Below, piece by piece: positions 1,845 through 61,413 of a stretch of 64,000 nt of DNA. Each line of letters begins with the position of its first letter. Position 1 is the stretch's first letter. A model generated the notes under the pieces. That model was not told where the DNA came from and did no database searches. It saw only the letters and a list, made by a program, of their open reading frames with translations. The DNA lies in contig JAZQWM010000009.1 in NCBI GenBank assembly GCA_045632345.1, forward strand, positions 1,730-65,729, read 5' to 3'. Position numbers and translations under genes: made by a program. This DNA comes from Eubacteriales bacterium. GTDB taxonomy: Bacteria > Bacillota > Clostridia > Oscillospirales > CAG-272.

Positions 1845-3995
1845 CTATATATTATCTTCTTCGGAGTCCGTATTATCAACGGTTTCGTTTAAATCCTCTT
1901 CCGTCATCTGCACCCTTACGGATGCTTTTTCTATTTTAAGCGGATTTTCCAAAGTATTTTCTATTATTTGATATTCACTTGAGTTATCAAATTCTTCTTT
2001 TTGCTGTTGCTTTTCTTTAGCGCTTGCCGCGTAGTCGTCCATACGCTTTTTAAATTTAGCATCAATGTTTTTAGGCAAACGAACGTATTTTCTGCTTGGA
2101 GTTTTTTCTTGATTAGCTTCCTCATCTAACACGACATCCAAAACTGACATAGTATGGTCGTAGGTCAAGCTTTCAGGAGCTTCCTCTTCTCTTTCGATAC
2201 GGATATACGCAAAGGAAAGAGCGATTAAAATCCAGAACATTAAAAATATTTTTTTGTCATACCACGTATAGTTGGCAACGCCTGCCAAGGTTAGACCTGC
2301 AATAGCGCAAAAGCTTGCACAGCAGTTTATTTTTCTATATTGGTTTTTCGCCTTCAAACAATAGGAAAACGTAAGTCTGATAAGCATAACGCCAAACACT
2401 AATATACCGATAAATACTATTACACCGTACTCTAACAGTGCTTGAATTATTGCGTTATCAAAATATCCCTCGTTAGCTTGGAACGTTGATTTGAAAACCC
2501 CTTCGCCAAGACCGATACCGAAAGGCTTTTTGAGTACTAGGCTTAATCCGTTCATTGTTTCATCAATCAAGCCTGTTAACGATACACCCTCAAGAATTTT
2601 AGTGGATAAAATACTTTCAAGAGCTGTTTTTGGAAGTGTAAAATAAAGAACCGGACACATCACTAAAATGGCTAGCGTTAAATATACGAAGTTCCTATTA
2701 AATATCATCAGCAGCAGTAATGATGCGCATGCTATGCCGATAATGCCTGAAAGTGAATTTGTAAGGCATAAGGCAACCACCATAACTATACCGATTAAAA
2801 TACCGTTTAATTTCTTCCAGCCGTTTCTCTCCGATATAAAATGCACCATGGAAAATGGGATTACCGCGGCAAGATAATGAGCTAAAACGTCGGAGCTATT
2901 GAACGTTCCTACCGCGTTTTGTCCATTAATAAATAAGAATGAAAGCTGTGGAATATTTACTTCCGTATTACCGAATATTACTTGAATAATTGAAATGATA
3001 GCTACCGCTAAGCCTGAAAACACTAGTGAAATCAAGCATCTTCTAAACCATTCCTTTGAGCGTATTAGATTTGTTAATACAAAATAGAACAAGGTGAAGC
3101 ATGCTAAAAACAATGCGTTTGTGATTGACTCCTTAGGGTTAACGGAGATAGAGCCACGTATCAGGGTTAGGGCGAATATCATTATAACAAATACGTCAAA
3201 ATATTCGATTTTAAAGGTTCTTCTGCCTAAAATACACTTTACCGTGTAGCTAAAGAGCACGAATAAAACGCAATATAGAAGTATTTTAACAGGTGCGAAT
3301 GGCAATATTGTAACAACTGCCAAGGCGCCGATTTCCGGGTGGCGTAAAACGCAATATGCTAGTATAGTCAAGAGCATGATTCCCACTAAGCCAAGAGGCG
3401 TAGTAAAATAGGATAAAATTCCTAATCCTATTCCAATGAAAAATGCTACGTTAGTAAGTGATACACGTTTTTTTTCAGAAATTTGTCTCATTCTTTCTTT
3501 GTTCATGCCAAAAAATCTGAACAAAATCAAATCACTTATCTTACTGTTGTAAATATTGGTTGATATAGGTTTTCCCGACACTAAAAAGGGAATGCCTAAA
3601 CCGCATACAATTAGTCCGGATACGAACATAGGAAACGTTACTTCCAAAAACAAAACGTATTCGTTTAACGGATACAATAGCGCTATTGTTGCGCCCATTG
3701 TTATTAGTATAAAGCCGTAATCGCGCGTTGTTACACGAAGCAGCCAATCAGCGAACTTACGGATTGCTTTTATGATAGCGTTTTTTTGAATTGATTTGGA
3801 AACAGCCTTTTTAATTCTGCTGTGTCCTACTTTTTTTCTTTTGCGTTTAGCCGATTGCAGATATTTTTCGTTAGCCTCGTCATATGAGGTAAAGAATCTG
3901 CCAAATATTCCGTTTTTAAAAAGGAAAAAGATTTTTTCACTGATAACATCAAATATTGAGCGACCGTCTATCTTGCTCTTCTTTTTTCTTTCCAA
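1845..3995 (-). CDS. Polytopic membrane protein, O-antigen-ligase (Wzy_C)-like, with a long acidic C-terminal tail
   Basis: 716-aa ORF with many hydrophobic helices. SLSGIIGIACASLLLL and GIGLGEG...DNAIIQALLEYGVIVFIG resemble the Wzy_C core. The last ~110 aa are rich in K, E and D. Confidence 0.55.
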   Translation of the reverse strand: MERKKKSKIDGRSIFDVISEKIFFLFKNGIFGRFFTSYDEANEKYLQSAKRKRKKVGHSRIKKAVSKSIQKNAIIKAIRKFADWLLRVTTRDYGFILITMGATIALLYPLNEYVLFLEVTFPMFVSGLIVCGLGIPFLVSGKPISTNIYNSKISDLILFRFFGMNKERMRQISEKKRVSLTNVAFFIGIGLGILSYFTTPLGLVGIMLLTILAYCVLRHPEIGALAVVTILPFAPVKILLYCVLFVLFSYTVKCILGRRTFKIEYFDVFVIMIFALTLIRGSISVNPKESITNALFLACFTLFYFVLTNLIRSKEWFRRCLISLVFSGLAVAIISIIQVIFGNTEVNIPQLSFLFINGQNAVGTFNSSDVLAHYLAAVIPFSMVHFISERNGWKKLNGILIGIVMVVALCLTNSLSGIIGIACASLLLLMIFNRNFVYLTLAILVMCPVLYFTLPKTALESILSTKILEGVSLTGLIDETMNGLSLVLKKPFGIGLGEGVFKSTFQANEGYFDNAIIQALLEYGVIVFIGILVFGVMLIRLTFSYCLKAKNQYRKINCCASFCAIAGLTLAGVANYTWYDKKIFLMFWILIALSFAYIRIEREEEAPESLTYDHTMSVLDVVLDEEANQEKTPSRKYVRLPKNIDAKFKKRMDDYAASAKEKQQQKEEFDNSSEYQIIENTLENPLKIEKASVRVQMTEEDLNETVDNTDSEEDNI

Positions 3996-24904: not shown

Positions 24905-26662
24905 TTATGCTGCTTGCCCTTCAATCTGAGCAAAGGTTAGCGTTTGTGGTGCTTTATCGCAATAGTCCTTAGCATCAGCACTTCCTACGTAGTAAAATTC
25001 GCCGTCATATACGTATGTGCACATTACAAGATTTAATGCTTTAAGGTTAATCTTGTCGCCTTCTTCATATGTCTTAAAGCCTGAGAGCTTAAAGTCAACG
25101 CCTGCGTATGTACTATCAACGCCAGCAATTACAGTATTATTAAGATTAGATGTTACTACACCCTCGTTATATGATAAAGCTAACGCTTCGCCTTCGTCGA
25201 TAATTGTTGCAACAACGCCGTATGCAATTGTTTTGTTGTTCGCTTTATTGTATTCATCAATTGCTACTAGGTTAAATGCATATCCTACGCAAAGCTCTGT
25301 ATTATCCTTATTTGTTGAGTAGCCTACAAATTCAAATAATGCTGCGGCTTCAAGAACGTCATCCTTGGAGCAGCCGTCATTTGTACAATATACGTGCTTT
25401 TCGCCCACTAAAACGTATGAAGTATATGAAATTTCAGTTGTTAAAGCGTGAACTGGGTTTTCAAGAGGCTTTACGTCCTCACATACTGAGCATTTTTCTA
25501 CACATGGGTTAGCTACGTAGTTATGGACTCCCTTATAGAATGCATCGCACTCGCTGTAATTATAAACGATAATGTTTTTGCCAAGTGACTCGGCATAGCC
25601 CTCATAGTTGATTGTTGGGTCGTATGCCATAAGCTCTGCTTTTGCAATTGTATCATTTGCCGTTGCTGCAATAAATTTATCCTGGGATGCCTTAGCTTCA
25701 TTATAAGTACCAGTAAAGAAGAATGTTACGTTCTTGCCTTGACCGAAAATATTATAGAATCCCTTTGATCCGGTTAACACATTAGCAAAAGTGGATGGTA
25801 AGTATATGTACTTTATGCTTGTTGTATTTAAAAACGTTTCGTAGTCAGCATTTGGACTTGTAAACGTTGTGAAGGATGCTCCGAAGTTTACTGTTTCAAG
25901 CTTAGCGCAATCGCAAAATGCCATTTTGCCAACTGTTGTAACTGTGTTAGGCAAAATAACCTCTGTAAGCTCATCACAATTATAGAATGCTGTTTGACCA
26001 ATTGAAGTTACACCTTCAGGAATTGTAATTGACGTAATACCTGTACCGGTAAACATTTGAGTGTTAATAGAGGTTACCGCAACAGGCCAATCAATGTGAA
26101 TATTAAGCTTTGGGCAACCGTTAAAGCCCGCATTGTTAATTTGAGTCATATGAGAAATATCTGAGATATACTCAAGATTTTTGCAGTTTGAGAATGCATT
26201 TTGAGCATGGATTCTCTTCAAATGAGTACCCCAACGCGCTTCTACTATTGTTGGGAAGTTTTCAAACTTTGCGGTGTTATGGTTAATTTCCTCAACATAT
26301 GTAGGAATTTGAATTCTCACAAGGCATTCCTTAATGCTATTAAATGTAACGCCCTCAGCTGCCATTGCGGTTTTTAGAGTGTTATTAAATCCACTTGGAT
26401 TGTAATAGACACTCATATTTACTACATAGTATGCAGGGAACACATAATACTTGCTTCCGTCTGTTAATACAACTCTTGACTCTCTGTCTGTGGCGGTGTT
26501 GCTTTCGCCGTATGCCGCTATGTCAAGTGTTGAAACGAGGCTTGCATCACAATCAAGACCTGGGTCAGAATCGAGTGGAATGATAGCTGCGCTTGCAGAA
26601 ATTGCAAATACGCATATGAGCATAGCAACCATAAGTGCTATGATAAAAATTTTCTTTTTCAT
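24905..26662 (-). CDS. Secreted BspA-type leucine-rich-repeat protein with Cys module and shared C-terminal domain
   Basis: 585 aa. Signal peptide MKKKIFIIALMVAMLICVFAISASA. LRR_5-like repeats (AFSNCKNLEYI, TSITIPEGVTSIGQTAFYNCDELTEV). The C-terminus is homologous to the C-termini of the three genes at 50303, 53412 and 56442. Confidence 0.85.
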   Translation of the reverse strand: MKKKIFIIALMVAMLICVFAISASAAIIPLDSDPGLDCDASLVSTLDIAAYGESNTATDRESRVVLTDGSKYYVFPAYYVVNMSVYYNPSGFNNTLKTAMAAEGVTFNSIKECLVRIQIPTYVEEINHNTAKFENFPTIVEARWGTHLKRIHAQNAFSNCKNLEYISDISHMTQINNAGFNGCPKLNIHIDWPVAVTSINTQMFTGTGITSITIPEGVTSIGQTAFYNCDELTEVILPNTVTTVGKMAFCDCAKLETVNFGASFTTFTSPNADYETFLNTTSIKYIYLPSTFANVLTGSKGFYNIFGQGKNVTFFFTGTYNEAKASQDKFIAATANDTIAKAELMAYDPTINYEGYAESLGKNIIVYNYSECDAFYKGVHNYVANPCVEKCSVCEDVKPLENPVHALTTEISYTSYVLVGEKHVYCTNDGCSKDDVLEAAALFEFVGYSTNKDNTELCVGYAFNLVAIDEYNKANNKTIAYGVVATIIDEGEALALSYNEGVVTSNLNNTVIAGVDSTYAGVDFKLSGFKTYEEGDKINLKALNLVMCTYVYDGEFYYVGSADAKDYCDKAPQTLTFAQIEGQAA

Positions 26663-34265: not shown

Positions 34266-36281
34266 TTAGCCTTCGTATGCATAGAAGCTTACAGTTGCAT
34301 CTGCAGAAGCTGTAATTGTTACGTTAGTAACGCCCTCGTTCTCGTAGAGATCGAAGAATGTCTCAGCAGAATTTACTGTGTATGTCTTGCTTTCTTCGCC
34401 ACATTCAACTACGATTGTGTACGTAGTATCAGCAGATGCGCTTGAAAGCTTGATAATGCCCTTAGAAATATCAATGCTATCTTCTGTTACAGCAAGGCTG
34501 TATGCTACGTTAGCTGTAAGTGTTGTTGGTTCAGCTGGATTTCCGTAGCCCTTGAGTTCCCATGAGAGTGATGTGTTCTCGTCGATAACGAGGTCGCCAT
34601 CCATGATTGGCTCATCCATGTATGTTGTTATATCTCTGTATGTAACGTTGCATACTGAACATACAAGACGACCGTCGATGTACTCAGTAAATGGATGCTC
34701 TGTTCTTCTTGTGAAGTCCTTTTGGCACTTTTCTGTACAATCAGCATCGTTTGTACATGCGTAGTATGTATAACCCACAGACGTACATGTTGGATTTACA
34801 ACCTCTTGTGTTAAAATCCATTTATCTTCGCCGTTAGCGCCTACACCGTGCTTAAGAAGTGGTTTTTCTTCTTCAGTATATGTTTGTCTCCACTCTGTGT
34901 TACAATCGCCACATTCCCAAATTGTGTACGCATTCTTAATACATGTTGTAGGAACGAATTCGATTGGATTTCCATCTGCATCAACTGTCTTGTTAATTGT
35001 TGCCTTATGTGGAACTGTTTTAACGTTTCTTTCTTCTCTACAGCCTAAAGTACATGTGGTTTCTGCTGTTGTACTTGTCTCACAAATTGTACACACATAG
35101 AGGTCATAACCATATGCATAGCACTTTGCATCGATAACAGCTGTTGGAGCTTCTGCAAATACGTGGTCAAGCTTTTCGCCTGAGTGTCTCTTTTCTGTTG
35201 CTGTACAAGCAGCATCAGTTGTACACTTGAATTCTTCATATGCAGCCTCGTGACATGTAGCTGCCTTTGAGCTGATTAGCTCATCTGTTACATAGTGAAC
35301 GCCTGTTGCAGGAATCGCTTTAACATAGCTATTGCCAGTATCAGGGTCAATCTCAACGTCAAGAATTTCACCACATTCAGGTCTCATACACTTAGGTGTA
35401 ATTGTACCTTCTGTGATACACGTTGGCTCTACTCTTGTGATGTAGTCAACGTTTTCGTAATCAACTAAGTGTCCATTAGCCCCATCGTGTTCACCAGGAA
35501 GAACGTTCTTCTCTGTACAGCCTGCGTTTAAGCACTCATAATAGTCGTAACCAGGAAGTGTACACGTTGGTCGGTTCCATTGAACGTTCTCTTCGTCCCA
35601 ATCGTGACCGAGAGCGTCAGCAGTTTTAACTGTCCATGTTTCATCACATACTGTACATTTAAAGTTGTCTGTACCCTCTGTTAAGCATGTAGCTGGGGAA
35701 GAACCTGTTTGAACTTCTGTGTGTGGGAGTTTTGGAATTTCATCAACCTTACCACGAGCACCACATGTCTTACAAACTTGTGATACTGAGCCAGGAGCCT
35801 TACATGTAGCTTCTACTGTAACCTGTTCGTAATCATGCGCCCATCTAACTAATTCGCCTGTGCCATCTTCCGCTTCGCCGCAGATTGAACATACAGTCTC
35901 CTCAATACCGTTTTGTTGCTTACCGCAATCAACCGGTGTTGTCATCTTTTTCTCGCTGAAATCATGGAACTCAGCGCTTGACTTAATTTCGTCTTTTGGT
36001 TCACTTTCAGCTCCACATACTGAACATACTTGGTATGTGTAACCGTTATGACGGCATGTTGGCGCTTTAACGATTTCTTCGCCAAACGCGTGAGGAAGTG
36101 CCGCAACTTCTCTTTCCTCTGATTCGCCACATTCACAAGCAAAAATTGCTTTACCTGCAGCTTCACATGTTGCCTCTGTAATAACCTCTGTTTGCTTAAA
36201 GTCATGCTCATGTCCGCATGAAACTAAAACAAATGTAAGAGCTAGTACAGCAAGTACTAATAACAATACTCTTTTTTTCAT
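34266..36281 (-). CDS. Lipoprotein built from about 12 tandem Cys3-His modules plus a C-terminal beta-rich domain
   Basis: 671 aa. Lipobox LVSC|G. Repeated H-x(8-20)-[TK]C-x(8-12)-C-x2-C-x(8-20)-H modules. Has its own TTGACT-17-TATAAT promoter and terminator. Confidence 0.82.
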   Translation of the reverse strand: MKKRVLLLVLAVLALTFVLVSCGHEHDFKQTEVITEATCEAAGKAIFACECGESEEREVAALPHAFGEEIVKAPTCRHNGYTYQVCSVCGAESEPKDEIKSSAEFHDFSEKKMTTPVDCGKQQNGIEETVCSICGEAEDGTGELVRWAHDYEQVTVEATCKAPGSVSQVCKTCGARGKVDEIPKLPHTEVQTGSSPATCLTEGTDNFKCTVCDETWTVKTADALGHDWDEENVQWNRPTCTLPGYDYYECLNAGCTEKNVLPGEHDGANGHLVDYENVDYITRVEPTCITEGTITPKCMRPECGEILDVEIDPDTGNSYVKAIPATGVHYVTDELISSKAATCHEAAYEEFKCTTDAACTATEKRHSGEKLDHVFAEAPTAVIDAKCYAYGYDLYVCTICETSTTAETTCTLGCREERNVKTVPHKATINKTVDADGNPIEFVPTTCIKNAYTIWECGDCNTEWRQTYTEEEKPLLKHGVGANGEDKWILTQEVVNPTCTSVGYTYYACTNDADCTEKCQKDFTRRTEHPFTEYIDGRLVCSVCNVTYRDITTYMDEPIMDGDLVIDENTSLSWELKGYGNPAEPTTLTANVAYSLAVTEDSIDISKGIIKLSSASADTTYTIVVECGEESKTYTVNSAETFFDLYENEGVTNVTITASADATVSFYAYEG

Positions 36282-50302: not shown

Positions 50303-53248
50303 TTATTCTGTTAGTGAGTTTATCGACACACCTGTTGGTAGGCTTGTTTGAGTAGCTTGTAGATATACTGTTGTATCTCCCTCAGTTAAGTAGATTGCCA
50401 TAACAACTGCTAGGTCTTTATTTGCATCGTTAAAGCCTGATACCTTCAAGTCAAAGCCACAGAATTTTCTGTCAAGCTCTGCTTTTTGAGTAAAGGATAC
50501 TATCTCGTTATCAAGAGGAGCTTTTCCGTTGAGCTTTTCTTCAAGCGATAATACAACGCCGTAGCTTACTGACGTTTGATTTAAAGCTTCATAAGCATCA
50601 ATGGCACTCTTATTTATCATAAAGCCCATTGTAATTTCAAGTCTGCCATCCTCTGGCATTGAGTAGCCTAGGAATAAGAATAGTGGATCGGCAGATGGTG
50701 CTTCCTCAATATATTCACTCTCGCACACGCTGCAAATACAGGTCTTTGTACCTGTAAATACAAATCCGTTTGCGTAAGAAACGCCGATTATTTCGCCTTC
50801 CTTATGACCTGTAATTGGTAATAGCTCGTAGGTGTACGTAATTTCCTCATAGTTATTGCTATTTGTTTTTTGGTTAGTAAACACCTTAACGGTTACCTCG
50901 CCCTCAACGAATTCTCCGCAAGGGCAGTCGCCCTTATAACCCTTAAAGCCCACCTCTGTACACGTATCAACAACCTTGGTTGCTTCAACTAGTGGATGCG
51001 GAATACCGTAAACAATTTTATATGCAGGATAGGTTACACCGTCAACGGTTTTAGATTCACAGTTACTGAATGCGCTTCCGTGTGTAATTGGAGCGTTTGT
51101 ATAAACGGTAATACCGTGGCTCTTATGGAATGCATCATTGCTAAGTGAAAGCTCTGTTGAGTGAATATAAATTTCCGCAGGTCCTGTTGTTGGGTCGTTA
51201 TCGTCTGCCCATTCGTACGAGTAGCAGAACGTCCAGCCTGCTGGGAATTTATTTACTTCCATTAAAACAGCCTTTTTGAGCTTATAGTTTCTATTAAACG
51301 GGTCGTTATCTAAGGAAGTTATTCCTCTGCCTACGTAGATATATTCTATATTGTTTTCCCAGAATGCACTACCTGTAAATTGAGGTCTTGAATAGTCAGG
51401 CAAAATAATTTCTTTAATGCCTGTACAGTTACCAAATGCTTTACCTGCAAGAACATAATCGCTGTTTGTTGAGAAGGTTACCCTCTCAATGCTTTTTACC
51501 ATGCTGAAAACTTCTGCTTCATAGGTAACGAACGCGCCTTCCTTATCGGAAAGAATATTTTTGATTGCGGTGTTTGCGCAGCCCTTTTTAAACGTTACGT
51601 TGGCAGCGCCAATATTGATGGTTTCAAGTGAGGATAATTGTGCAAAGCTATATACGTTGATTTTTGCACCGTCCTCAATATTTATTGTTCTTAATCTATA
51701 TGCACCAAATTCAAATCTAATTGCTGAAATACATGCAGGAACAGATACCTCGGCAACGTCATCTGATGAGAAATCTCCGTAATACTTAATGCCTGTGATT
51801 GTATATGAGTATGCGCCCTCTTCGCCTGATGCTTCAAGATGGAATATATCGGTAACGGGAACACTCATTTTCACTTCTCCGTCTGATGTGTAGAAAACAA
51901 CTTCAACGCTTATGAATGATGGGTCATAGGAATACTTTTTGTTTTCTATTTTTCCACAAGAGGAGCATTCATAGGTTTTAACTCCCGCTTCCGTTGGAGT
52001 GGCAGGAACGTCATTTATAACGCTGAAGCTATGAGGTGCTTTTCCCTCTGATTCAATATAGTATGAATGCTGACATAGTGAACACGTAAATTCTGTTCTG
52101 CCTGATGATATACAGGTTGCTGCATATTCAGACTTTTCATAATTATGGATACAGTCAATAGGTACTACTGTAACAAACACCGTATCACCGACCTTTTGGG
52201 ATACTGTCGTGTGTGTATCAAGTAATAGCTCCTTAAGAGCTTCCGTTTCTGCAAAATTCAAAACAAATGAGCCACCTGTTACGTTGAAGTAGTTAAGCTG
52301 TTCATTATTATATGAATTTGTATTAGCTGAGAAAATCGCTGCATTTTCCTCGATAAAGATAAACGAGCCGCCGCTGATATTAACGTTTATAATACCTACG
52401 TAGGTTGTTCCGCCTGTAAGTGAAGGTCCTGTTAAAACGATTTCGGCTCCCTCATAAACGTTAACGTTTGGTTGTCTTTCCAAGTCTCTATCCATGTGTA
52501 GCAGTCTATACGCGGTAACCTTACCGTAAATATCCATTGTTGGATATAGCTGTGTACCAATGGTGTTTGTATCGCAGCCAAGAATAGCGGTTGATGCTTC
52601 AACTACGATATCAGCGCCGATAAGTAAATAGTTATTATTTCCCGCATAAGTATGAGAGTGCATTCTAAAAAGGTGCGCGCCTAAGCCTGACGTATCGCTT
52701 GGCTCAAATATAATTTCGCCCTCTCCGTAAAATCTTCTGCCTGCTCTTTCCTGCTCAAAGCCACGGTTTGTGCCTTTGATTGTCAAGGAATGTCCATTCA
52801 TAAAGAAATTGGTAATGCCTTGGTTTTTTGTTGAAATGGTGCCGCTTTCTGATACTAAGTCATTCATAAGCTTTACTGCTGTACCGTTTGCAACGGCAGT
52901 TTTCATGGCTTCGATTGTATCAACCTCAAGTGCCTTAAACTGATAAAGAGGTGTATTCTTATCAAAGCTTACAACGTCTCCTGCGCTCCACGCTTTACCG
53001 TCAGGTGTTGCCCATACTAAGCAGTAGCCTGTATCTACTGTTTTTGTAGGGAGTGTAATTTTTTCTCCCTTAGCAACAACTTGCGTTCCCTCTGTTCCAA
53101 CAGTCTTATCCAAGGAAGTTGAGTTTATTCCCGTCATATAGGAAATTGTTATTTGCTCCTGCTCTGCAAAGGTATTAAATGCCAAAAGCATAGCTGAGCA
53201 AATTGTAACTGTTATTATCGCTAATATAAGCAATATTCTTTTTTTCAT
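50303..53248 (-). CDS. Giant secreted protein, paralog 1: Flg_new-like repeat, Cys3-His modules, BspA-type LRRs, shared C-terminal domain
   Basis: The ORF runs to 53272. I moved the start to ATG 53248 (taaggagaaaagctATG), giving 981 aa. Signal peptide MKKRILLILAIITVTICSAMLLAFNTFA. Confidence 0.88.
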   Translation of the reverse strand: MKKRILLILAIITVTICSAMLLAFNTFAEQEQITISYMTGINSTSLDKTVGTEGTQVVAKGEKITLPTKTVDTGYCLVWATPDGKAWSAGDVVSFDKNTPLYQFKALEVDTIEAMKTAVANGTAVKLMNDLVSESGTISTKNQGITNFFMNGHSLTIKGTNRGFEQERAGRRFYGEGEIIFEPSDTSGLGAHLFRMHSHTYAGNNNYLLIGADIVVEASTAILGCDTNTIGTQLYPTMDIYGKVTAYRLLHMDRDLERQPNVNVYEGAEIVLTGPSLTGGTTYVGIINVNISGGSFIFIEENAAIFSANTNSYNNEQLNYFNVTGGSFVLNFAETEALKELLLDTHTTVSQKVGDTVFVTVVPIDCIHNYEKSEYAATCISSGRTEFTCSLCQHSYYIESEGKAPHSFSVINDVPATPTEAGVKTYECSSCGKIENKKYSYDPSFISVEVVFYTSDGEVKMSVPVTDIFHLEASGEEGAYSYTITGIKYYGDFSSDDVAEVSVPACISAIRFEFGAYRLRTINIEDGAKINVYSFAQLSSLETINIGAANVTFKKGCANTAIKNILSDKEGAFVTYEAEVFSMVKSIERVTFSTNSDYVLAGKAFGNCTGIKEIILPDYSRPQFTGSAFWENNIEYIYVGRGITSLDNDPFNRNYKLKKAVLMEVNKFPAGWTFCYSYEWADDNDPTTGPAEIYIHSTELSLSNDAFHKSHGITVYTNAPITHGSAFSNCESKTVDGVTYPAYKIVYGIPHPLVEATKVVDTCTEVGFKGYKGDCPCGEFVEGEVTVKVFTNQKTNSNNYEEITYTYELLPITGHKEGEIIGVSYANGFVFTGTKTCICSVCESEYIEEAPSADPLFLFLGYSMPEDGRLEITMGFMINKSAIDAYEALNQTSVSYGVVLSLEEKLNGKAPLDNEIVSFTQKAELDRKFCGFDLKVSGFNDANKDLAVVMAIYLTEGDTTVYLQATQTSLPTGVSINSLTE

Positions 53249-53282
53249 AGCTTTTCTCCTTAATATATACAATTACAATAAA

Positions 53283-53411: not shown

Positions 53412-56288
53412 TTAGGATAATGAGTTTATTGATACCCCTGTTGGTAGGTTGGTTTGAGTATCTTGCAGATATACCGTTGTATCTCCATCGGTTACGTAGA
53501 TTGCCATAACGACTGCTAAATCCTTAATATTATCGTTAAAGCCTGAAATCTTTAAGTCAAAGCCACAGAGTTTTCTGTCAAGCTCTGTCTTTTGAGTATA
53601 TGATGCCACCTCGCTATCGAGAGGAGCTTTACCGTTAAGATTGTTTTCAAGGGCTAATACAACGCCGTAATTGAAGGTATTTCCAGATAATTCTTCGTAG
53701 GTATCAATTACTTTATTGTTAATCATAAAGCCCATTGTGATTTCAAGTCTGCCATCCTCAGGCATTGAGTAGCCTAAGAATACAAATAATGGGGCAGCAC
53801 TTGGCACAAGCTCTGTGTATTCCTCGTTACAAACGCGACAAATACAATCCTTTAAGCCCTCAAGCATGTAGCCATTGAGATAGTCAACGTAAACAATATC
53901 ACCCTCAAAGTGTCCTGTTGCAGGAATTACGGTTGAATAATATACTTTATCTACAAAGTTTTCGCTATTAGTAAGAGCTGCTGTAAAGGTTCTTGCAGTT
54001 ACTTCTCCGTCTAATTGAACACCGCAAGGACAATCAGTCTTATATCCGTTTACGCCGTTTTCTGTACATGTTGGCTCCTCGTATGCTTCAACGAGCTTAT
54101 GAGGAATACCGTACACAATGGTATATGCAGGATAGTACACGTCGTTTTTAGTTACTTCGGTACAGCCATTGAATGCACTTCCGTTTGTAATAGGCGCATT
54201 TGTGTAAATGGTAACGCCATGACATTGATAGAACGTATTGTTTGGAAGTGAGAGTGAATCTGAGTGAATGTAAACCTCAACAGGCTTTTCTGCAGTATTT
54301 TCAACACAGAAGGTATATTCTTGGATTATTTTAACAACGTCCATAAGAACGATTTTCTCAACGTTTTGGCAATAGTCAAACGCTTTACCATCAAGATATT
54401 TTATTCCTCTACCTAAATAGATATATTTGAGTGAAGTGCACTTATAGAACGGAGGATCCATTTTAAACGTTACATCTGAATAGTCAGGGGCTATAAACTC
54501 TGTTATACCTACTCCTCTAAAGCTATTGCTTCCAAATACGTACTTACTGTAAGAGCTAAGCTTTAATTCTGTAATAGATGATCTACCGTCAAATACCTGT
54601 GTGTCAAAGGTTATGTCTGCTCCCTGCACCTCTGATTTAATAGAGAATATTACTTTATTAGTACAGCCCTTAACAAATTTTACAGTTGATGCGCCAATTT
54701 CAATATGAGTTAACGCTTTACAATTTGCAAAGCTGCTAACAGTTACATTTGCTCCGTCGATTATTACGAGCTTTTGAAGCGTTGTGTTTTCTGATGCAAA
54801 ATTTATATCAGCTATGCCCACAGGAACGTTGATAGCTACTATATTTGCTACTGTATAGCCGCCAAAGTCCTTTAAGCCAACTAGCTTATATTGATTATTG
54901 CCCATGCTTTCTAAGTTGAATACGTCGCTTACCTTTACAGATACTTCTTCTTCAATTTCGTCTGTTTTTACGGTAACCTTTACTTCCTTTTCAGCTACGT
55001 CGTCATAATAGATTTCGCTTTTTGTATCAAAGCAAACCTTACACTCATAGCTCTTTACGCCCGCTGACGTATAGGTAGGTTGCTTATCATCTACTAATTT
55101 CCAGTCATGGTCTGCATAATCCCCATATACAACGGTATAAGTGTGATTGCATTTTGAACAGGTATAAGTTTTATCTGCAAGCGCAATACAAGTTGCATTA
55201 ATCTCACTGGTAACTGCGTAAGTATGAGCGCATTCGCTCTCTTCTACAACGATATAGTAGGTTGCTCCGCCAAGCTCAAGTGGTTGAATTTTATATCCTA
55301 AAGCGATATATTCTTCAACTTTTTCTCCAAAAGCCACGTTAAACGTGCCGCCGGATATTGATATAATTTGACGATCGCCATATGATACGGTATCGTTATT
55401 ATTCCAATAGTCTGTTCCGCTTGCATTTTCAGCTAATTTAATATATCCGTCGGTTACTGTTATGCGAACCTTACCGTTTCCTGCGGCATCATAAGTTCCG
55501 ATCGTAAATAGCGCGTCTCCTGTTACGGTTAAATCTTTAGCGTTGATTTTAATGTCAAGCTCATGGTTAAGAGTAGATATATAAGCGATTTTTGCGCAAG
55601 AGGCTTTACCAAAAATATGAATTGGAATTACGCTATTATTGCCGTTAGTGTAATGTAATAACGTTCCTTTTGTTGATATAGTAACATCCTTACCAACGAT
55701 AAGTCTTTGGTTTCCGTCGCCGAAGCCGTGTGAAGAAGCATTAAAGAAATTGCCTGTTCCTGTGTGGATAACGGAACCTTCGCCTACAAGTATAACACCT
55801 GCTCTTTGCTCTTCAAACAAATTTTTTGCTGATGAGGTAATTGAGTAGCCGTTTAAATCAAAGATTACTCTACCGCCCCAAGGTGGCGCGATTCTAGACT
55901 CTAAAACGATATCCTCTTGAAGACGTACAAAGATTTGGTCCCATTGGCTGTTACCCTGTGTAGCACCTTGGTACTTAATGCTTTCGTTTGTTCCGTCATA
56001 TCCGTACGCCTCATACAAATCAAGGTCGCTTGTTAACGTAACTACTTCGCCAACATCGTAAACATCACCCTCTACATTATACCAGCCAAAAAGTGTTTTT
56101 CCACTTTGGTTAGTATAGCCTGTGCTTTTTATGGTAATTTGTCCGTTTGCATCAGTTGTGGCCGTTTCCTTTACAGAACCCCATATATCACGGTAGGTTA
56201 CCAAGTATTCTTCAGCGCATACTGATATTGCGAAAATAAAAGCAAAAACGAATATTAGTGAAATAAATATAAGTATTTTCTTTTTCAT
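53412..56288 (-). CDS. Giant secreted protein, paralog 2 (same architecture)
   Basis: 958 aa. Signal peptide MKKKILIFISLIFVFAFIFAISVCA. The C-terminal ~126 aa are close to paralog 1 (PLF(L/V)FLGYSMPEDGRLEITMGFMIN). Confidence 0.88.
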   Translation of the reverse strand: MKKKILIFISLIFVFAFIFAISVCAEEYLVTYRDIWGSVKETATTDANGQITIKSTGYTNQSGKTLFGWYNVEGDVYDVGEVVTLTSDLDLYEAYGYDGTNESIKYQGATQGNSQWDQIFVRLQEDIVLESRIAPPWGGRVIFDLNGYSITSSAKNLFEEQRAGVILVGEGSVIHTGTGNFFNASSHGFGDGNQRLIVGKDVTISTKGTLLHYTNGNNSVIPIHIFGKASCAKIAYISTLNHELDIKINAKDLTVTGDALFTIGTYDAAGNGKVRITVTDGYIKLAENASGTDYWNNNDTVSYGDRQIISISGGTFNVAFGEKVEEYIALGYKIQPLELGGATYYIVVEESECAHTYAVTSEINATCIALADKTYTCSKCNHTYTVVYGDYADHDWKLVDDKQPTYTSAGVKSYECKVCFDTKSEIYYDDVAEKEVKVTVKTDEIEEEVSVKVSDVFNLESMGNNQYKLVGLKDFGGYTVANIVAINVPVGIADINFASENTTLQKLVIIDGANVTVSSFANCKALTHIEIGASTVKFVKGCTNKVIFSIKSEVQGADITFDTQVFDGRSSITELKLSSYSKYVFGSNSFRGVGITEFIAPDYSDVTFKMDPPFYKCTSLKYIYLGRGIKYLDGKAFDYCQNVEKIVLMDVVKIIQEYTFCVENTAEKPVEVYIHSDSLSLPNNTFYQCHGVTIYTNAPITNGSAFNGCTEVTKNDVYYPAYTIVYGIPHKLVEAYEEPTCTENGVNGYKTDCPCGVQLDGEVTARTFTAALTNSENFVDKVYYSTVIPATGHFEGDIVYVDYLNGYMLEGLKDCICRVCNEEYTELVPSAAPLFVFLGYSMPEDGRLEITMGFMINNKVIDTYEELSGNTFNYGVVLALENNLNGKAPLDSEVASYTQKTELDRKLCGFDLKISGFNDNIKDLAVVMAIYVTDGDTTVYLQDTQTNLPTGVSINSLS

Positions 56289-56441: not shown

Positions 56442-59400
56442 TTATTCTACCGGTGTTTCTTCTTCCTTTGGTTCTTCCGCAGGTGGATTTACAGGAGCTT
56501 CACTTCCAAGATATTTGTTAATTGAAATTGAAGCCGGTAAATCTGTTTGAGTATCTTGTAGATATACCAAGCTATCGCCCTCAGCTACGTATGCAGCCAT
56601 AACAAGCTCTAAATCATAAAGCTCAGTTGTAAAGCCTGAAACAACAAAGTCAAATGATAAAAACTCCTTAGGTACAGTTGTCTTAACCACAGCCACATTC
56701 TCAAGCGTTTCATCAAATGGAGCCTTGCCATCAAGAGCGTTAGCTAATGCAAAAGCAACGCCGTAGCTTATCGAAGTTTCTGCCACTGATTCATATTCTG
56801 CGATTGCTTCCTTATTTACAATATAGCCAATGCTCATTTGGAGTCTTCCGTCCTCAGGCATTGAGTAGCCATTAAAGATGAATAATGCTGCTGCATCCTT
56901 TTCTACTGTATGCTCAACGTTACATCTTGTACAGATGTATGATACTGCGCCCTTTTCAAGATAGCTTACGTATGCGATGTTTGTCTTTTCGCCAAGCTTA
57001 TCGTGTCCTAAAGGAGCGATTTCTGTTACAGTGAATGTAACTGCCTCATCAACTGCTGTATCAGCTGTGATATTGTGCTTCTTTTCATACTTATTGATTA
57101 CTGTTGTTTCAGTAAAGTACGTTTCAGAGCCACATGGACACTTTGTGATATCTACAATCCAAGTATTTAAGCCGATATTTACACAGTCAGGGTCAACAAC
57201 GTGGTTTGTAAGTGGATGAGCAAGACCGAGATATACTGTCCAAGCCTTAAAGCCGTTTGTATCGCCACAGTTTGCAAATACTTCGCCGCTTGTGCCGATA
57301 TTGTCTGTTATTGTATATACGAAGATACCGTCGCACTCCTTAAATAAGCCCTTATTGAATACAAAGTCAAGTGAGTGGTTATAAACATAGAAAGGTGTTG
57401 CGTAGTTGCTTGAGCCAGCGTATTCAAATTCATATTCGCTTGTGTGTGTAACACCTTCCATGATATAAAGTGTTTCAAGCGCTTTAAGGTTTCTAAATGG
57501 ATAGTTTTTAATCTCAATATTCTTACCGATATAGAGAGTTACAGCCTTATCACATTCCTTAAATGCATCAACGCCTGTGAATTCTACATTTATGTTATCT
57601 TCAAATGTGATTGAAGCGAAGTCAGCATAACGGAATGCTTCTCTACCAATCTTAAATGTGGATGTATTTGAGAATACGACGTCGTTTGTTGGTGATGTGC
57701 TTCTGAATGCATAGTCGCCGATTGTGTAGGTTGAGTTTTCACCAAATGCAAGATATGTTACTGTGCTTCTGCCGTCAAATGCCTGTGAGCCAAATGTTGC
57801 GGTTACATTATTTGCGGTAAAGTCAAGCGTATTAATTGCTGAACAATCACGGAAGCAGTAGTATCCAAAATCATATGTAGAATTTGCACCGAATTTTACC
57901 TCGGTAAGCTTTGCGTTCTTAAAGCACTCTTGACCGAATGTATATGTGGAGTTTTCGCCGCTTACATCAAGTGATGTAATTGCGCTCTTTCCGTTAAATA
58001 CATGGTTAGCAACTATAACTGTTAAGTTATTTGCACTTGCATCAATCCTTTGAAGATTATTTGTTGAGCTGTAGCAGTTGCTATTAAAGTTATAGGTTGA
58101 GCCTTCTCCAAGTGTTAATTCAGTAAAAATAGAGTTTCTGAACGCTTCGCTATTGAATGTATATGTGCCGTTTTTACCGTTGATTAAAAGCGTCTGAAGT
58201 GTGTTCTTACCGAATCCGTACGCATTTACTGTTACATTTAAGCTGTCTGCGCTTGCATCAATCTTAGCTATTGGAGTTGAACCATTAAAGCAGTTATTGA
58301 ATACGTAGGTTGAGCCTTTACCGAGTGTTACCTCTGCAATCTTTGTATCAACAAACGCGCTACCGTTAAAGGTATATGTGGAGTTTTCGCCGTTAATCTT
58401 TAAGGTATCAAACGCTGTATGTCCCTTAAACGCCTCTCCTTCAATCAATAATGTAATTCCGCTTGCGCTTGCATCAAGAGCTTTGAAGGATGATTTATTT
58501 GGAGTACCGTTTATGCAGTATCTCTTGAATGTGTATGATGAATTCGGTGCTAAAACAAACTCTGTAAATAATGCATCATTAAATGTGCCTTCGCTAATTA
58601 CATATGTTGAATTTTCACCAAATTTAAGTGTTGTGATAGCACCTGTTTGCTTGTTGTCTAACCATGAGTTAAAGGCACTATTGTTCATAGTTACAGTCAT
58701 ATTGCCTGCACTCATATCAATTTCTTCAAGTATTGTGTTTGTAAATGCTTGTTGACCTATTGTGTAGCTGCTGTTTGGCGCTAACACAACCTTTGGAATT
58801 GGGCAATATGTAAAGCATCTTGATCCTATGCTATACGTTGCATTTTCGCCGAATTTTACGCTTGTAAGTGTTTTACAGTTTTCAAACATTCTATACATTA
58901 AATCAAAGCTTACTCCATCAGGGAAAACAAGCTCTGTCATATCGTTTCCGTAGAAGTTTTGTTCGCCTGAGAATGTATATGTGTTTGTTGCAGGGAATTT
59001 TAATTCTGTAATTGTACAGTTATAGAATGCATATGACTTAATATCGTAAGTTGAATTTTCGCCAAAAATAAGATTTGTTAACGCGCCTCTTCCATTAAAT
59101 GCACTTGGCATAAAGGTTACCGTATGATTGCCCGCGCTTAAGTCGATTGTAGCAATCTTTTGCATGTCGCGTCTTTCGTTGTTTGGACTATAGTAGCTAC
59201 AGCTTGCGCAGAATACTACATTAGCATTTTTGCCTACTGTAATCTTTTCAACCTTTCTTAGGTTACCGATATTTTGAAACTCAACCTTTGCGCCTTCTGC
59301 GATATTAAGCTCAGCTACGCCGTATTCTACATTATTATATTTTTCGTAGTTGTGAGTTGTGATGTAGATATACATAATTCCCTTAGGAATTGTAATACCG

Positions 59401-61349
59401 TAAATGTTTCTAATCTTATAGTCGCCAAATGCTTTAACTGCGGAAAGAGTATAAACATAGTCTCCATCTGAGCCTGATGTAGCAAAGTCGAAAACCTCGC
59501 TTGCCTTAACAGTGATTTCCTCAAATGTGCCATCATCAAGTCTAATCTTAACTAAAATGTCAAGGTTAGATGGATCAAGGTTGTATGGAGATGTTTTTGA
59601 CATACCACACATTGAGCACGCGTATGATTTTGAACCAAGGGATGTAAGTGTTGCTTCGATGTGCTCACCTAAAACAAGGTTGTGGTTAAGCTTTTCGCCC
59701 CATGTGAAGTATACATTATGACCGCACTCTGTACAGTTATAGTCTGCATATGCAGCGTGGCTACATGTAGCATCTGTTGGTTCGCCACTGAATGTGTGCT
59801 CACATGCTGCAGGAACAACTACTTGGAATGTTGTGTTGTCTGCTACAAGATTTTGAAGCTTATAGTCAACTGATGTAGTAGCGTTCTTAAATAAGAAGAA
59901 GTTAGCACCTTGAACCATTACGAAATCATCTGTTAATTTATCGTATGTTGTAGTTGTTGTGCCATCGCCGTTATCTACTACTGTTGCTTCGTAAATAAGT
60001 AATGTTTCAATAGCGTTGCCATCAGCGTTCTTTGTTGATGTGTATCTATACTCTGTTTTGTTGCCTGCGAAGTCAGTTACAACGAGCTTTGCAGGATTTG
60101 TTCCATCGTACTTGCTGAATACGAGCTTGTATGCAGCCTTGTTGTAGTATGGAACATAGTATGTTGAGTCGTTATTGTTTGTAACAAGACCATTACCGCC
60201 ATCGTGAATCATATTAACATAATCTTCTGTTAAAAATGATGAAATAGCAGGAACCTTATTGTCAGGAAGAACGAATGAACCGCCTGAAATCTTGATTGAG
60301 TCTCTATTTGTATCTGTAACCTCATATGGTGAGTATGTTGCAGATCCTACAACAAATTCCTCAAGGTATTCATCTGACCAGAATGAAAGGTTTTCAGCCT
60401 CTGCAGGTAAGTAGAATGTACCACCGTAAATTCTTATTTGAATAGCGTGGCTGTTGAAGTAGTATTGCGTATTTGATGATTTGTAATAGCACTGATATAA
60501 TGCAGGACCATTAATTTTAACTACTGCGTTTTCATAAATTTCAAAAACTTGAGTTCTGGTTGGGCCTGTGCTTGTTACCATAAGACCGTAAACATCAATC
60601 TTACCGTAAATTCTGATCCAAGGATAGTGTGGGTTAGTGCCATCCCAGTCCTGTGTGAGCCAGAAGTCAGGAGCGTTAATTGTAACATCGCGACCAACAA
60701 CGGATTTGTTCTTTGTACCATTATAGCCGTGACCTTGGCTATTGATTACATAGTATGAGCCAACCTTACCATCTGTGCTTGTTACATTTAATGTACCTTC
60801 ACCTAAGATTTGCTTACCCGAACGCTGATTACCGATAATATCACCGTTTCTTGTCATATCGATAGTGTGGCCATTTAAGATAAGTGCGGACATATCCTGG
60901 TCCCTAACATCAATACCAACGGTGGTTATGATATCAGCCATTAAGATAGCGGCAATGCTTTCGTTTGTCATAGCATAGTTAACTTCTGTAATTGTGTAAC
61001 ATTCCTTAGCTACGCATCTGAAAAGCTTTGTGTCCTTATCGAATGATACGGTCTCTCCCGCTTTATATGTGCGACCGTCTTCTGTGTAGAATACAAGCTG
61101 GAAGCCATCTTGTCCTACATATGAGTTGTCGGCAGTTAATGGAAGCGTAAATTCTTCTCCTGCCTTTACTGTTTGTTTACCGCCTGCATATGCAACTGTA
61201 TCAAGAGTGGTTGTAGTACTTGTTGTATCTTGAGACTTTACATATGAAACGGTAATGTCCTTTGCTTCTGCTTCGTTTGCAATTGCTACAACGCCAAGAA
61301 CTAAAATAGCAACTAAAACGAAAATCAAAGCAATTAAACTCTTTTTCAT
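56442..61349 (-). CDS. Giant secreted protein, paralog 3, with an expanded LRR array
   Basis: The ORF runs to 61394. I moved the start to ATG 61349 (aaaggagaaaccaaaATG), giving 1635 aa. Signal peptide MKKSLIALIFVLVAILVLGVVAIANEAEA. Confidence 0.88.
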   Translation of the reverse strand: MKKSLIALIFVLVAILVLGVVAIANEAEAKDITVSYVKSQDTTSTTTTLDTVAYAGGKQTVKAGEEFTLPLTADNSYVGQDGFQLVFYTEDGRTYKAGETVSFDKDTKLFRCVAKECYTITEVNYAMTNESIAAILMADIITTVGIDVRDQDMSALILNGHTIDMTRNGDIIGNQRSGKQILGEGTLNVTSTDGKVGSYYVINSQGHGYNGTKNKSVVGRDVTINAPDFWLTQDWDGTNPHYPWIRIYGKIDVYGLMVTSTGPTRTQVFEIYENAVVKINGPALYQCYYKSSNTQYYFNSHAIQIRIYGGTFYLPAEAENLSFWSDEYLEEFVVGSATYSPYEVTDTNRDSIKISGGSFVLPDNKVPAISSFLTEDYVNMIHDGGNGLVTNNNDSTYYVPYYNKAAYKLVFSKYDGTNPAKLVVTDFAGNKTEYRYTSTKNADGNAIETLLIYEATVVDNGDGTTTTTYDKLTDDFVMVQGANFFLFKNATTSVDYKLQNLVADNTTFQVVVPAACEHTFSGEPTDATCSHAAYADYNCTECGHNVYFTWGEKLNHNLVLGEHIEATLTSLGSKSYACSMCGMSKTSPYNLDPSNLDILVKIRLDDGTFEEITVKASEVFDFATSGSDGDYVYTLSAVKAFGDYKIRNIYGITIPKGIMYIYITTHNYEKYNNVEYGVAELNIAEGAKVEFQNIGNLRKVEKITVGKNANVVFCASCSYYSPNNERRDMQKIATIDLSAGNHTVTFMPSAFNGRGALTNLIFGENSTYDIKSYAFYNCTITELKFPATNTYTFSGEQNFYGNDMTELVFPDGVSFDLMYRMFENCKTLTSVKFGENATYSIGSRCFTYCPIPKVVLAPNSSYTIGQQAFTNTILEEIDMSAGNMTVTMNNSAFNSWLDNKQTGAITTLKFGENSTYVISEGTFNDALFTEFVLAPNSSYTFKRYCINGTPNKSSFKALDASASGITLLIEGEAFKGHTAFDTLKINGENSTYTFNGSAFVDTKIAEVTLGKGSTYVFNNCFNGSTPIAKIDASADSLNVTVNAYGFGKNTLQTLLINGKNGTYTFNSEAFRNSIFTELTLGEGSTYNFNSNCYSSTNNLQRIDASANNLTVIVANHVFNGKSAITSLDVSGENSTYTFGQECFKNAKLTEVKFGANSTYDFGYYCFRDCSAINTLDFTANNVTATFGSQAFDGRSTVTYLAFGENSTYTIGDYAFRSTSPTNDVVFSNTSTFKIGREAFRYADFASITFEDNINVEFTGVDAFKECDKAVTLYIGKNIEIKNYPFRNLKALETLYIMEGVTHTSEYEFEYAGSSNYATPFYVYNHSLDFVFNKGLFKECDGIFVYTITDNIGTSGEVFANCGDTNGFKAWTVYLGLAHPLTNHVVDPDCVNIGLNTWIVDITKCPCGSETYFTETTVINKYEKKHNITADTAVDEAVTFTVTEIAPLGHDKLGEKTNIAYVSYLEKGAVSYICTRCNVEHTVEKDAAALFIFNGYSMPEDGRLQMSIGYIVNKEAIAEYESVAETSISYGVAFALANALDGKAPFDETLENVAVVKTTVPKEFLSFDFVVSGFTTELYDLELVMAAYVAEGDSLVYLQDTQTDLPASISINKYLGSEAPVNPPAEEPKEEETPVE
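57465..59162 (-). repeat. Coding super-repeat: about 72-aa units, each of three ~24-aa BspA-type LRRs, in giant paralog 3
   Basis: G(E/K)N(S/A/G)TY anchors at ORF aa 778, 849, 926, 1002, 1073, 1146 and 1218. ID(A/L/M)SA anchors at aa 750, 892, 973, 1045, 1117 and 1190. Confidence 0.85.
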
Positions 61350-61384
61350 TTTGGTTTCTCCTTTAAGATATATAATATATATTA

Positions 61385-61413
61385 ATGATATCACATATTG
61401 TGTAATATGTCAA
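61385..61413 (-). promoter_or_regulatory. Promoter of giant paralog 3
   Basis: Gene-sense TTGACA-17-TATCAT with TGa extended -10. Confidence 0.6.

Follow-up and report, generated by a model that had tools for sequence, protein, structure and literature searches.

Four secreted leucine-rich repeat proteins share a C-terminal domain

We analysed a stretch of 64,000 nucleotides (nt) from a Eubacteriales bacterium (GenBank assembly GCA_045632345.1, contig JAZQWM010000009.1, positions 1,730 to 65,729 of the forward strand), which at its full length is referred to below as the window. Four genes on its minus strand, here called A to D, encode secreted proteins with leucine-rich repeats (LRRs), and a first-pass annotation of the window had proposed that these proteins share an unassigned C-terminal domain (CTD). 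The genes and their copies of the CTD are given below in window coordinates, with lengths in amino acids (aa), the longest open reading frame (ORF) where a shorter one is likely, and the E value of each copy in a search with a hidden Markov model (HMM).

50303..53272, minus strand: gene A; longest ORF 989 aa from TTG, likely ATG start at 53248
53412..56288, minus strand: gene B; 958 aa, paralog in tandem with A and built in the same way
56442..61394, minus strand: gene C; longest ORF 1650 aa, likely ATG start at 61349, tandem paralog
24905..26662, minus strand: gene D; 585 aa, dispersed paralog with signal peptide, LRR_5, Cys/His modules and CTD
50306..50686, minus strand: CTD of A, residues 863-989 (stop codon 50303-50305); HMM E = 1e-64
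53415..53792, minus strand: CTD of B, residues 833-958; HMM E = 2.3e-65
56508..56888, minus strand: CTD of C, folded part, residues 1503-1629; HMM E = 6.7e-64
56445..56507, minus strand: tail of C, 21 aa, Pro/Glu-rich and acidic (GSEAPVNPPAEEPKEEETPVE), outside the fold
24908..25342, minus strand: CTD of D, residues 441-585, including two loop insertions that A-C lack; HMM E = 4.3e-53

The product of gene A consists, in order, of a signal peptide, an N-terminal region, a mid-protein Cys module, a BspA-type LRR_5 region, Cys/His modules and the CTD. In gene C the LRR_5 region is expanded to eight stretches (E = 9e-48). Matches to LRR_5 (PF13306) score 40.4, 48.8, 161.8 and 93.6 bits in A, B, C and D respectively, against a Pfam cut-off of 27.7, and a Sec-type signal peptide is visible in all four sequences (in D, for example, MKKKIFIIALMVAMLICVFAISASA followed by A). 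With LRR_5 above its gathering score and a signal peptide, A-D can be classed on sequence as BspA-type LRR surface proteins. The description of these proteins as secreted and without a visible anchor was borne out, as each has a signal peptide and none has an LPXTG motif, a membrane segment or another known anchor after the domain. The TTG and GTG codons that open the longest ORFs of A and C lie 8 and 15 codons before an ATG (53249-53272 and 61350-61394), and the ATG codons open canonical signal peptides (MKKRILL... and MKKSLIAL...); these ATG codons are likely to be the true starts. The signal peptides of A-D (e.g. 26588-26662) and of their homologs also follow an unusually conserved consensus, MKKKxxLxxxxxxxxxCxFAISxSA, whereas mean column identity of the family is only 11-12%.

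The motif [AP]LFxFxGYS begins at minus-strand positions 50686, 53792, 56888 and 25342, and from there each domain extends to the stop codon of its ORF, exactly as first annotated. The original size estimate of about 125-150 aa can be narrowed: the folded domain has about 125 aa, and the surplus is accounted for by the Pro/Glu-rich tail in C and the loop insertions in D. Full-length alignment of the four copies gives identities to A of 76-77% (B), 50% (C) and 29-34% (D), with 26 invariant columns. The likeness noted by eye between the C-termini proved genuine, both in BLASTP of the most distant pair, A and D (E = 8e-14), and in a profile-profile comparison by hhalign of an A/B/C-like profile with an independent D-like profile (probability 99.3%, E = 3.6e-20). 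When the window was translated in six frames and searched with an HMM built from the four copies, the matches were these four ORFs alone (E from 1e-53 to 1e-65), the next best having E = 1.2. Chance or compositional similarity of the four C-termini is ruled out by the HMM, BLASTP and hhalign scores. Judged from these comparisons, all four regions represent a single, real domain of about 125 residues that had not been classified before.

The CTD matches no known family

At E <= 1, no Pfam-A or NCBIfam match overlapped the CTD in any of A-D, and when 61 members of the family were compared singly with Pfam-A at the same threshold, none of the Pfam families had matches from two or more of them (best E = 0.0038). 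Profile searches of PDB sequences returned nothing for the CTD and one insignificant match (E = 0.23) for the CTD together with the Cys/His modules that precede it. The AlphaFold2 model of the CTD of A is very confident (predicted local distance difference test, pLDDT, 96.6; predicted template-modelling score, pTM, 0.87), and the fold that it predicts is an Ig-like beta-sandwich of acidic character that includes one helix. A Foldseek search with this model against PDB and BFVD gave no match at E <= 1e-3; the best PDB matches, with a template-modelling (TM) score of about 0.4, were CBM21 (carbohydrate-binding module, CBM, family 21), DUF3823 and FN3. The CTD thus belongs to no Pfam-A or NCBIfam family and could be placed with no solved structure, in agreement with its designation as unassigned, and its confident model lacks a close neighbour in PDB.

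The best structural matches, CBM21 (7qfa/7qf7) and DUF3823 (4fxt), are likewise small beta-sandwiches and were retrieved with Foldseek E values of about 1e-2 to 1e-3 and probabilities of at most 0.99. They differ from the CTD in that TM scores are only 0.26-0.41, root-mean-square deviations are 5-7 Å or worse, identities are 4-16% and no sequence-profile match exists. For CBM21, membership of which requires TM > 0.5 together with conserved aromatic sites for sugar binding, we obtained TM 0.37-0.41 at 4-5% identity and no match to the CBM_21 HMM. This likeness is generic Ig-like similarity and no evidence of homology or starch binding.

The domain is acidic throughout the family: among 61 members the median isoelectric point (pI) is 4.34, none lies above pI 7, and the median net charge is -9. 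A nearly invariant Ser occupies a G-Y-S turn at the end of the first strand of the AlphaFold2 model. Several Tyr/Phe positions are conserved, and most of the conserved aromatics fall in predicted strands, where they are probably core residues.

Cys/His hairpin modules precede the CTD

In most members the CTD is preceded by some 100 conserved residues that comprise two Cys/His modules, in which three Cys columns are 93-94% conserved and one His 68% (126 sequences). Their positions in the window are as follows.

50687..50998, minus strand: two Cys/His hairpin modules of A, residues 759-862, directly upstream of the CTD
53793..54101, minus strand: Cys/His modules of B, residues 730-832, upstream of the CTD
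56889..57218, minus strand: Cys/His modules of C, residues 1393-1502, upstream of the CTD
25343..25552, minus strand: shorter Cys/His modules of D, residues 371-440 (ECDAFYKGVH...CVEKCSVC...H...YCTNDGC)

A Cys module had been credited to three of the four copies; it is present in all four, the overlooked one being recognisable in D by CVEKCSVC...H...YCTNDGC. The modules of A follow the pattern H..C...G...CxCG ... GH....Y..GF...G.K..C..C, and the family consensus, running into the start of the CTD, is ...tC...G....y.gC.Cg....a.gH.....i.Y.gYl..G.kt..C..Cg.......a.pLFtFLGYS. In the AlphaFold2 model of residues 755-989 of A (pLDDT 89.3 overall and >95 from the second module onward; pTM 0.79), the modules are beta-hairpins joined to the sandwich, so that in the model modules and CTD appear to form one C-terminal unit. 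A PDB structure search with this model found no convincing neighbour. The Cys/His hairpin module is probably metal-binding, and like the CTD this extracellular module seems to be without Pfam annotation.

Modules of the same kind also occur elsewhere in the window. A second Cys/His set lies mid-protein in A, at about 51900-52130 (residues 381-460; e.g. CIHNYEKSEYAATCISSGRTEFTCSLCQHSYY...KTYECSSCGK), and has equivalents in B and C; in all three proteins it follows the N-terminal region and precedes the LRR region. A separate ORF of 671 aa at 34266-36281 (minus strand) begins with a lipoprotein-type signal (MKKRVLLLVLAVLALTFVLVSC followed by GHEH). Nearly all of it is a series of Cys/His modules of the pre-CTD type (H...[AP]TC...G.....C..CG), about 10 in tandem, and its C-terminal region, some 110 aa long, is poor in Cys. 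Neither Pfam nor PDB sequences gave a match. The product could be tethered to the membrane and be a relative of the LRR proteins or a partner to them.

Distribution and domain order of the family

We searched 1.84 billion cluster representatives (50% identity) with HMMER and found the CTD in 987 clusters at E <= 1e-3 and in 343 at E <= 1e-10. The source names that could be traced are 'leucine-rich repeat protein' or 'hypothetical protein [Clostridia bacterium]', all of them from metagenome-assembled genomes (MAGs); every CTD homolog whose source could be traced comes from a gut MAG of uncultured Clostridia. In a collection of species-representative genomes we found 18 related loci, all of them in four uncultured Clostridia/Eubacteriales gut MAGs that originate from water-deer caecum, goat caecum and faecal samples. 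Each of these MAGs carries at least 4-11 copies of CTD genes, and the 18 loci include tandem arrays of two, three or more genes. Phage carriage was looked for as well, but neither GenBank phages (by tblastn) nor IMG/VR nor BFVD gave a match; a phage origin of the CTD, or its use in phage cell-wall binding, is rejected on these empty searches.

Head-to-tail arrays were seen in L010 (2840-7604), L011 (1-3504), L018 (2-4369), L012 (1-4435), L004 (2-7449) and L001 (1-4381), where L numbers denote individual related loci. They parallel the A-B-C trio of the window, and such arrays are typical of expanding, diversifying surface-protein families. Two of the loci, L001 and L016, lie on a single contig of 63,742 bp (JBGVPY010000097.1, 'Eubacteriales bacterium fecal_MAG_177'). 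Because L001 and L016 are syntenic with copies A and D and share their flanking genes, the window comes from a close relative of fecal_MAG_177.

Among the 163 sequences retrieved for an analysis of position, 161 have the CTD at the extreme C-terminus. The tails beyond it are short (median 5 aa) and acidic, with no C-terminal motif conserved across the family. One subfamily (P0046, P0054, P0062, P0071, P0081, P0092, P0111 and others) does have a recurrent tail, ...YNDIVG.PST[ED]EEVTQ-COOH; EEVTQ ends seven sequences and VTQ eight, and the EEVTQ motif does not occur in the copies in the window.

LRR_5 is the usual companion of the CTD (56/84 and 25/29 homologs), and departures from the layout seen in A-D are few. 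In two proteins LRRs are followed by an SdrD_B/CarboxypepD_reg stalk and then the CTD, an adhesin layout whose last element is normally an anchor. P0091 is a metallophosphoesterase that ends in the CTD. The only two non-C-terminal cases among the 163, each found on several contigs, are P0124 (1252 aa), in which the CTD is internal (522-655) and followed by a phosphodiesterase and a LamG domain, and P0149 (320 aa), in which it stands right behind the signal peptide, lacks a Cys/His module and is followed by LRR-like sequence.

The CTD is the best-conserved part of each paralog

Conservation among the paralogs is highest at the C-terminus. Between A and B, identity is 24% in the N-terminal region, 41% in the LRR region, 51% in the Cys/His modules and 76% in the CTD; for A and C the corresponding values are 32, 33, 29 and 50%. 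Between A and D the CTD is 34% identical and the other regions 8-21%. The CTD is therefore the best-conserved part of each paralog. At the DNA level the CTDs of A and B are 80% identical, and their longest exact run is 20 nt. Since exact runs do not exceed 20 nt at this level of DNA identity, we attribute the conservation of the A/B CTDs to purifying selection, and recent gene conversion as its cause is ruled out. That the end-piece is kept while its passengers diverge suggests that it interacts with a partner common to all paralogs.

A possible role in retention on the cell surface

Our tentative reading, which we would stop short of calling probable, is that the CTD may be a module for non-covalent retention on the cell surface that binds a conserved component of the envelope. 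We infer both retention on the cell and a target for binding from the position of the CTD, the conservation gradient and the lack of an alternative anchor. The CTD sits in the anchor slot of architectures that run from signal peptide through adhesive domain (here LRR) and stalk to anchor. Neither an LPXTG motif nor a C-terminal hydrophobic run was found in any of 122 full-length members, no LPXTG-type sorting signal, in which a hydrophobic segment and a basic tail come after the motif, occurs among 412 ORFs of the window and the related loci, and no known Pfam anchor domain accompanies the CTD in the 123 full-length homologs scanned. A sortase signal or membrane anchor is ruled out by these counts. 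Extracellular enzymes of the metallophosphoesterase class, to which P0091 belongs, are commonly wall-anchored in Firmicutes. YfkN is an example of such an anchored enzyme (10.64898/2026.05.12.724683).

Under this proposal, the proteins would first be exported, and their variable N-terminal and LRR parts would then point outward, there to bind ligands or to diversify antigenically. The C-terminal unit, which is conserved, would tie the protein to the cell by binding non-covalently to an invariant envelope component, for which a wall glycopolymer, an S-layer and a partner protein tethered to the membrane are conceivable. It would thus fill the role that SLH, CWB2, WxL or LPXTG modules have in other Gram-positive bacteria.

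The non-covalent anchoring modules of Gram-positive bacteria are the closest match to the way in which the CTD may work. SLH, CWB2, WxL, GW and LysM/SH3b are likewise terminal modules carried by many different secreted proteins per genome that lack a covalent anchor, and they are, like the CTD, better conserved than their passengers and occasionally found at the other terminus. The CTD differs from all of these in having no sequence match to them, in being present as a single copy rather than as tandem repeats and in being strongly acidic. The folds of SLH and CWB2 also differ from the Ig-like beta-sandwich predicted for the CTD.

This reading needs to be treated cautiously, as several points weigh against it. 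The CTD proteins could simply be released from the cell. The CTD is uniformly acidic, unlike several classical modules for wall binding, which are basic, so that it could bind an anionic polymer only with cations as a bridge. The C-terminal bias may equally reflect common descent, since most cases represent one paralogous architecture, and the few independent fusions are split between a C-terminal (P0091), an internal (P0124) and an N-terminal (P0149) position. Finally, neither a binding partner nor a structural homolog with known ligand nor a conserved neighbour gene emerged from Foldseek against PDB and BFVD or from the window and the 18 related loci.

A bolder form of the proposal, which we consider doubtful, is that the Cys/His hairpin and acidic sandwich together could be a new class of Gram-positive anchor in uncultured gut Clostridia, replacing sortase, SLH and CWB2 and displaying a large, diversifying set of LRR adhesins and some enzymes; its receptor might be the Cys/His lipoprotein encoded at 34266-36281.

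Alternative explanations

It is unlikely that the CTD is instead an outward-facing module that binds a ligand or glycan, CBM-like or lectin-like, and gives the protein a second adhesive specificity towards a host or dietary target. Its best weak structural matches are carbohydrate-associated beta-sandwiches (CBM21 7qfa, with a Foldseek probability of 0.99 and TM 0.38-0.41, DUF3823 of Bacteroides ovatus and Ig-like domains of GH2), several of its Tyr/Phe positions are conserved, and like CBMs it can be found N-terminally and internally. A TM score of about 0.4 at 4-16% identity is nevertheless no more than generic Ig-like similarity, no Pfam CBM model matches, and most of the conserved aromatics lie in predicted strands and are probably core residues. 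The conservation gradient also runs the wrong way, as a diversifying, target-facing end would be expected to be the part that varies.

We are similarly sceptical of the possibility that the CTD is a structural end-cap, or a folding or oligomerisation module, that has no binding partner, and that the proteins are released or self-assemble. The rigid unit predicted for CTD and Cys/His module (pTM 0.79) would suit such a role, as would the near-confinement of the CTD to one protein family and the failure to find a partner gene in the window and the 18 loci; acidic secreted proteins without an anchor are, moreover, common. An end-cap leaves unexplained why constraint is stronger on the cap than on the LRR scaffold, and why the CTD was fused independently to a metallophosphoesterase and placed beside a phosphodiesterase. 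LRR caps also normally adjoin the repeats, whereas between these and the CTD lie about 100 aa of Cys/His modules, or else stalk domains. In Listeria internalin, a bacterial surface protein, the LRR region is likewise followed by an Ig-like beta-sandwich, the inter-repeat domain; the CTD differs from it in not being fused to the last LRR, given the intervening modules or stalks, and in having no LRR_adjacent match.

Sorting or export, which the first-pass annotation had suggested side by side with wall attachment, is improbable. The idea would be that the CTD is a C-terminal signal, possibly cleaved, for a dedicated machine, as are type IX secretion system (T9SS) C-terminal domains or the signals of sortase and exosortase. 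Tannerella BspA is a T9SS cargo, and the T9SS C-terminal domain (Por_Secre_tail, PF18962 / TIGR04183; Bacteroidota) is, as the CTD is predicted to be, an Ig-like sandwich at the C-terminal end of secreted BspA-type LRR proteins, nearly always at the extreme C-terminus in the case of the CTD. The two differ in length (about 125 aa here against a Pfam model of 75 positions), and neither Por_Secre_tail nor any NCBIfam sorting domain matches the CTD; the lone Por_Secre_tail match was below threshold (20.9 bits, cut-off 27) and fell on residues 1046-1096 of P0143, the CTD of which is 1535-1666. The CTD is thus rejected as a T9SS C-terminal domain. The CTD is unlikely to be a sorting signal tied strictly to the C-terminus, since a few members tolerate it at the N-terminus (P0149) or internally (P0124). 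The family has no conserved terminal or cleavage motif, and no dedicated sortase, secretion or processing gene was found next to any copy in the window and the 18 related loci. All members already have Sec signal peptides, and T9SS is confined to Bacteroidota (PMC5445135), whereas the host here belongs to Clostridia. Of the original suggestion, attachment is what survives, supported indirectly by the anchor-slot position, the top conservation and the absence of a co-occurring anchor.

Least credible is the idea that the CTD is a divergent member of the microbial GAIN-like (MAIN) modules, which cleave themselves and so release the ectodomain when shear force acts on it: MAIN beta-sandwiches do occur in large secreted Bacillota proteins behind adhesion domains, LRRs among them, or behind enzymatic ones such as phosphoesterases, ahead of an anchor such as a sortase signal, a wall-binding domain or SLH (10.64898/2026.05.12.724683), and the CTD has its nearly invariant Ser in the G-Y-S turn, but the catalytic H-X-[S/T] motif that MAIN/GAIN domains have in a beta-turn is absent (no column reaches 15% His, and H.[ST] occurs in only 2/61 CTDs), the Ser is placed by the model at the end of the first strand and not before the last, no anchor follows the CTD, which is the last element of the protein, and no GAIN structure is among the top 50 Foldseek PDB matches. 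With neither the motif nor a downstream anchor, we reject MAIN/GAIN membership.

Significance

If retention on the cell surface is correct, the CTD would represent a formerly unrecognised route of surface display in Gram-positive gut bacteria, the surface-protein repertoire of a widespread uncultured Clostridia lineage would become predictable from sequence, and the domain might provide a new display tag. Function aside, the analysis defines a domain family of about 1,000 clusters (50% identity) that is missing from Pfam, NCBIfam and PDB and has a very confidently predicted fold, and it also reveals an extracellular Cys/His hairpin module that is just as unannotated. For the present these findings have limited practical weight, as the traceable homologs are all uncultured, the fold is a generic Ig-like sandwich and the mechanism is a proposal; we regard the CTD as a new domain family of modest interest.

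Neighbouring genes

The neighbours of the CTD genes in the window are housekeeping genes, encoding valyl-tRNA synthetase (ValRS), a PHP-domain protein, nucleoside-salvage enzymes, DAHP synthase and a P-type ATPase. In the 18 related loci, recurrent neighbours such as Mfd reflect only orthologous synteny. Elsewhere in the window, at 1845-3995 on the minus strand, lies an ORF for a membrane protein of 716 aa with a Wzy_C (O-antigen ligase-like) domain (E = 2.3e-8). This is a hint that the organism has a system for a surface glycopolymer or for glycosylation, which would be relevant if the CTD binds a wall glycan.

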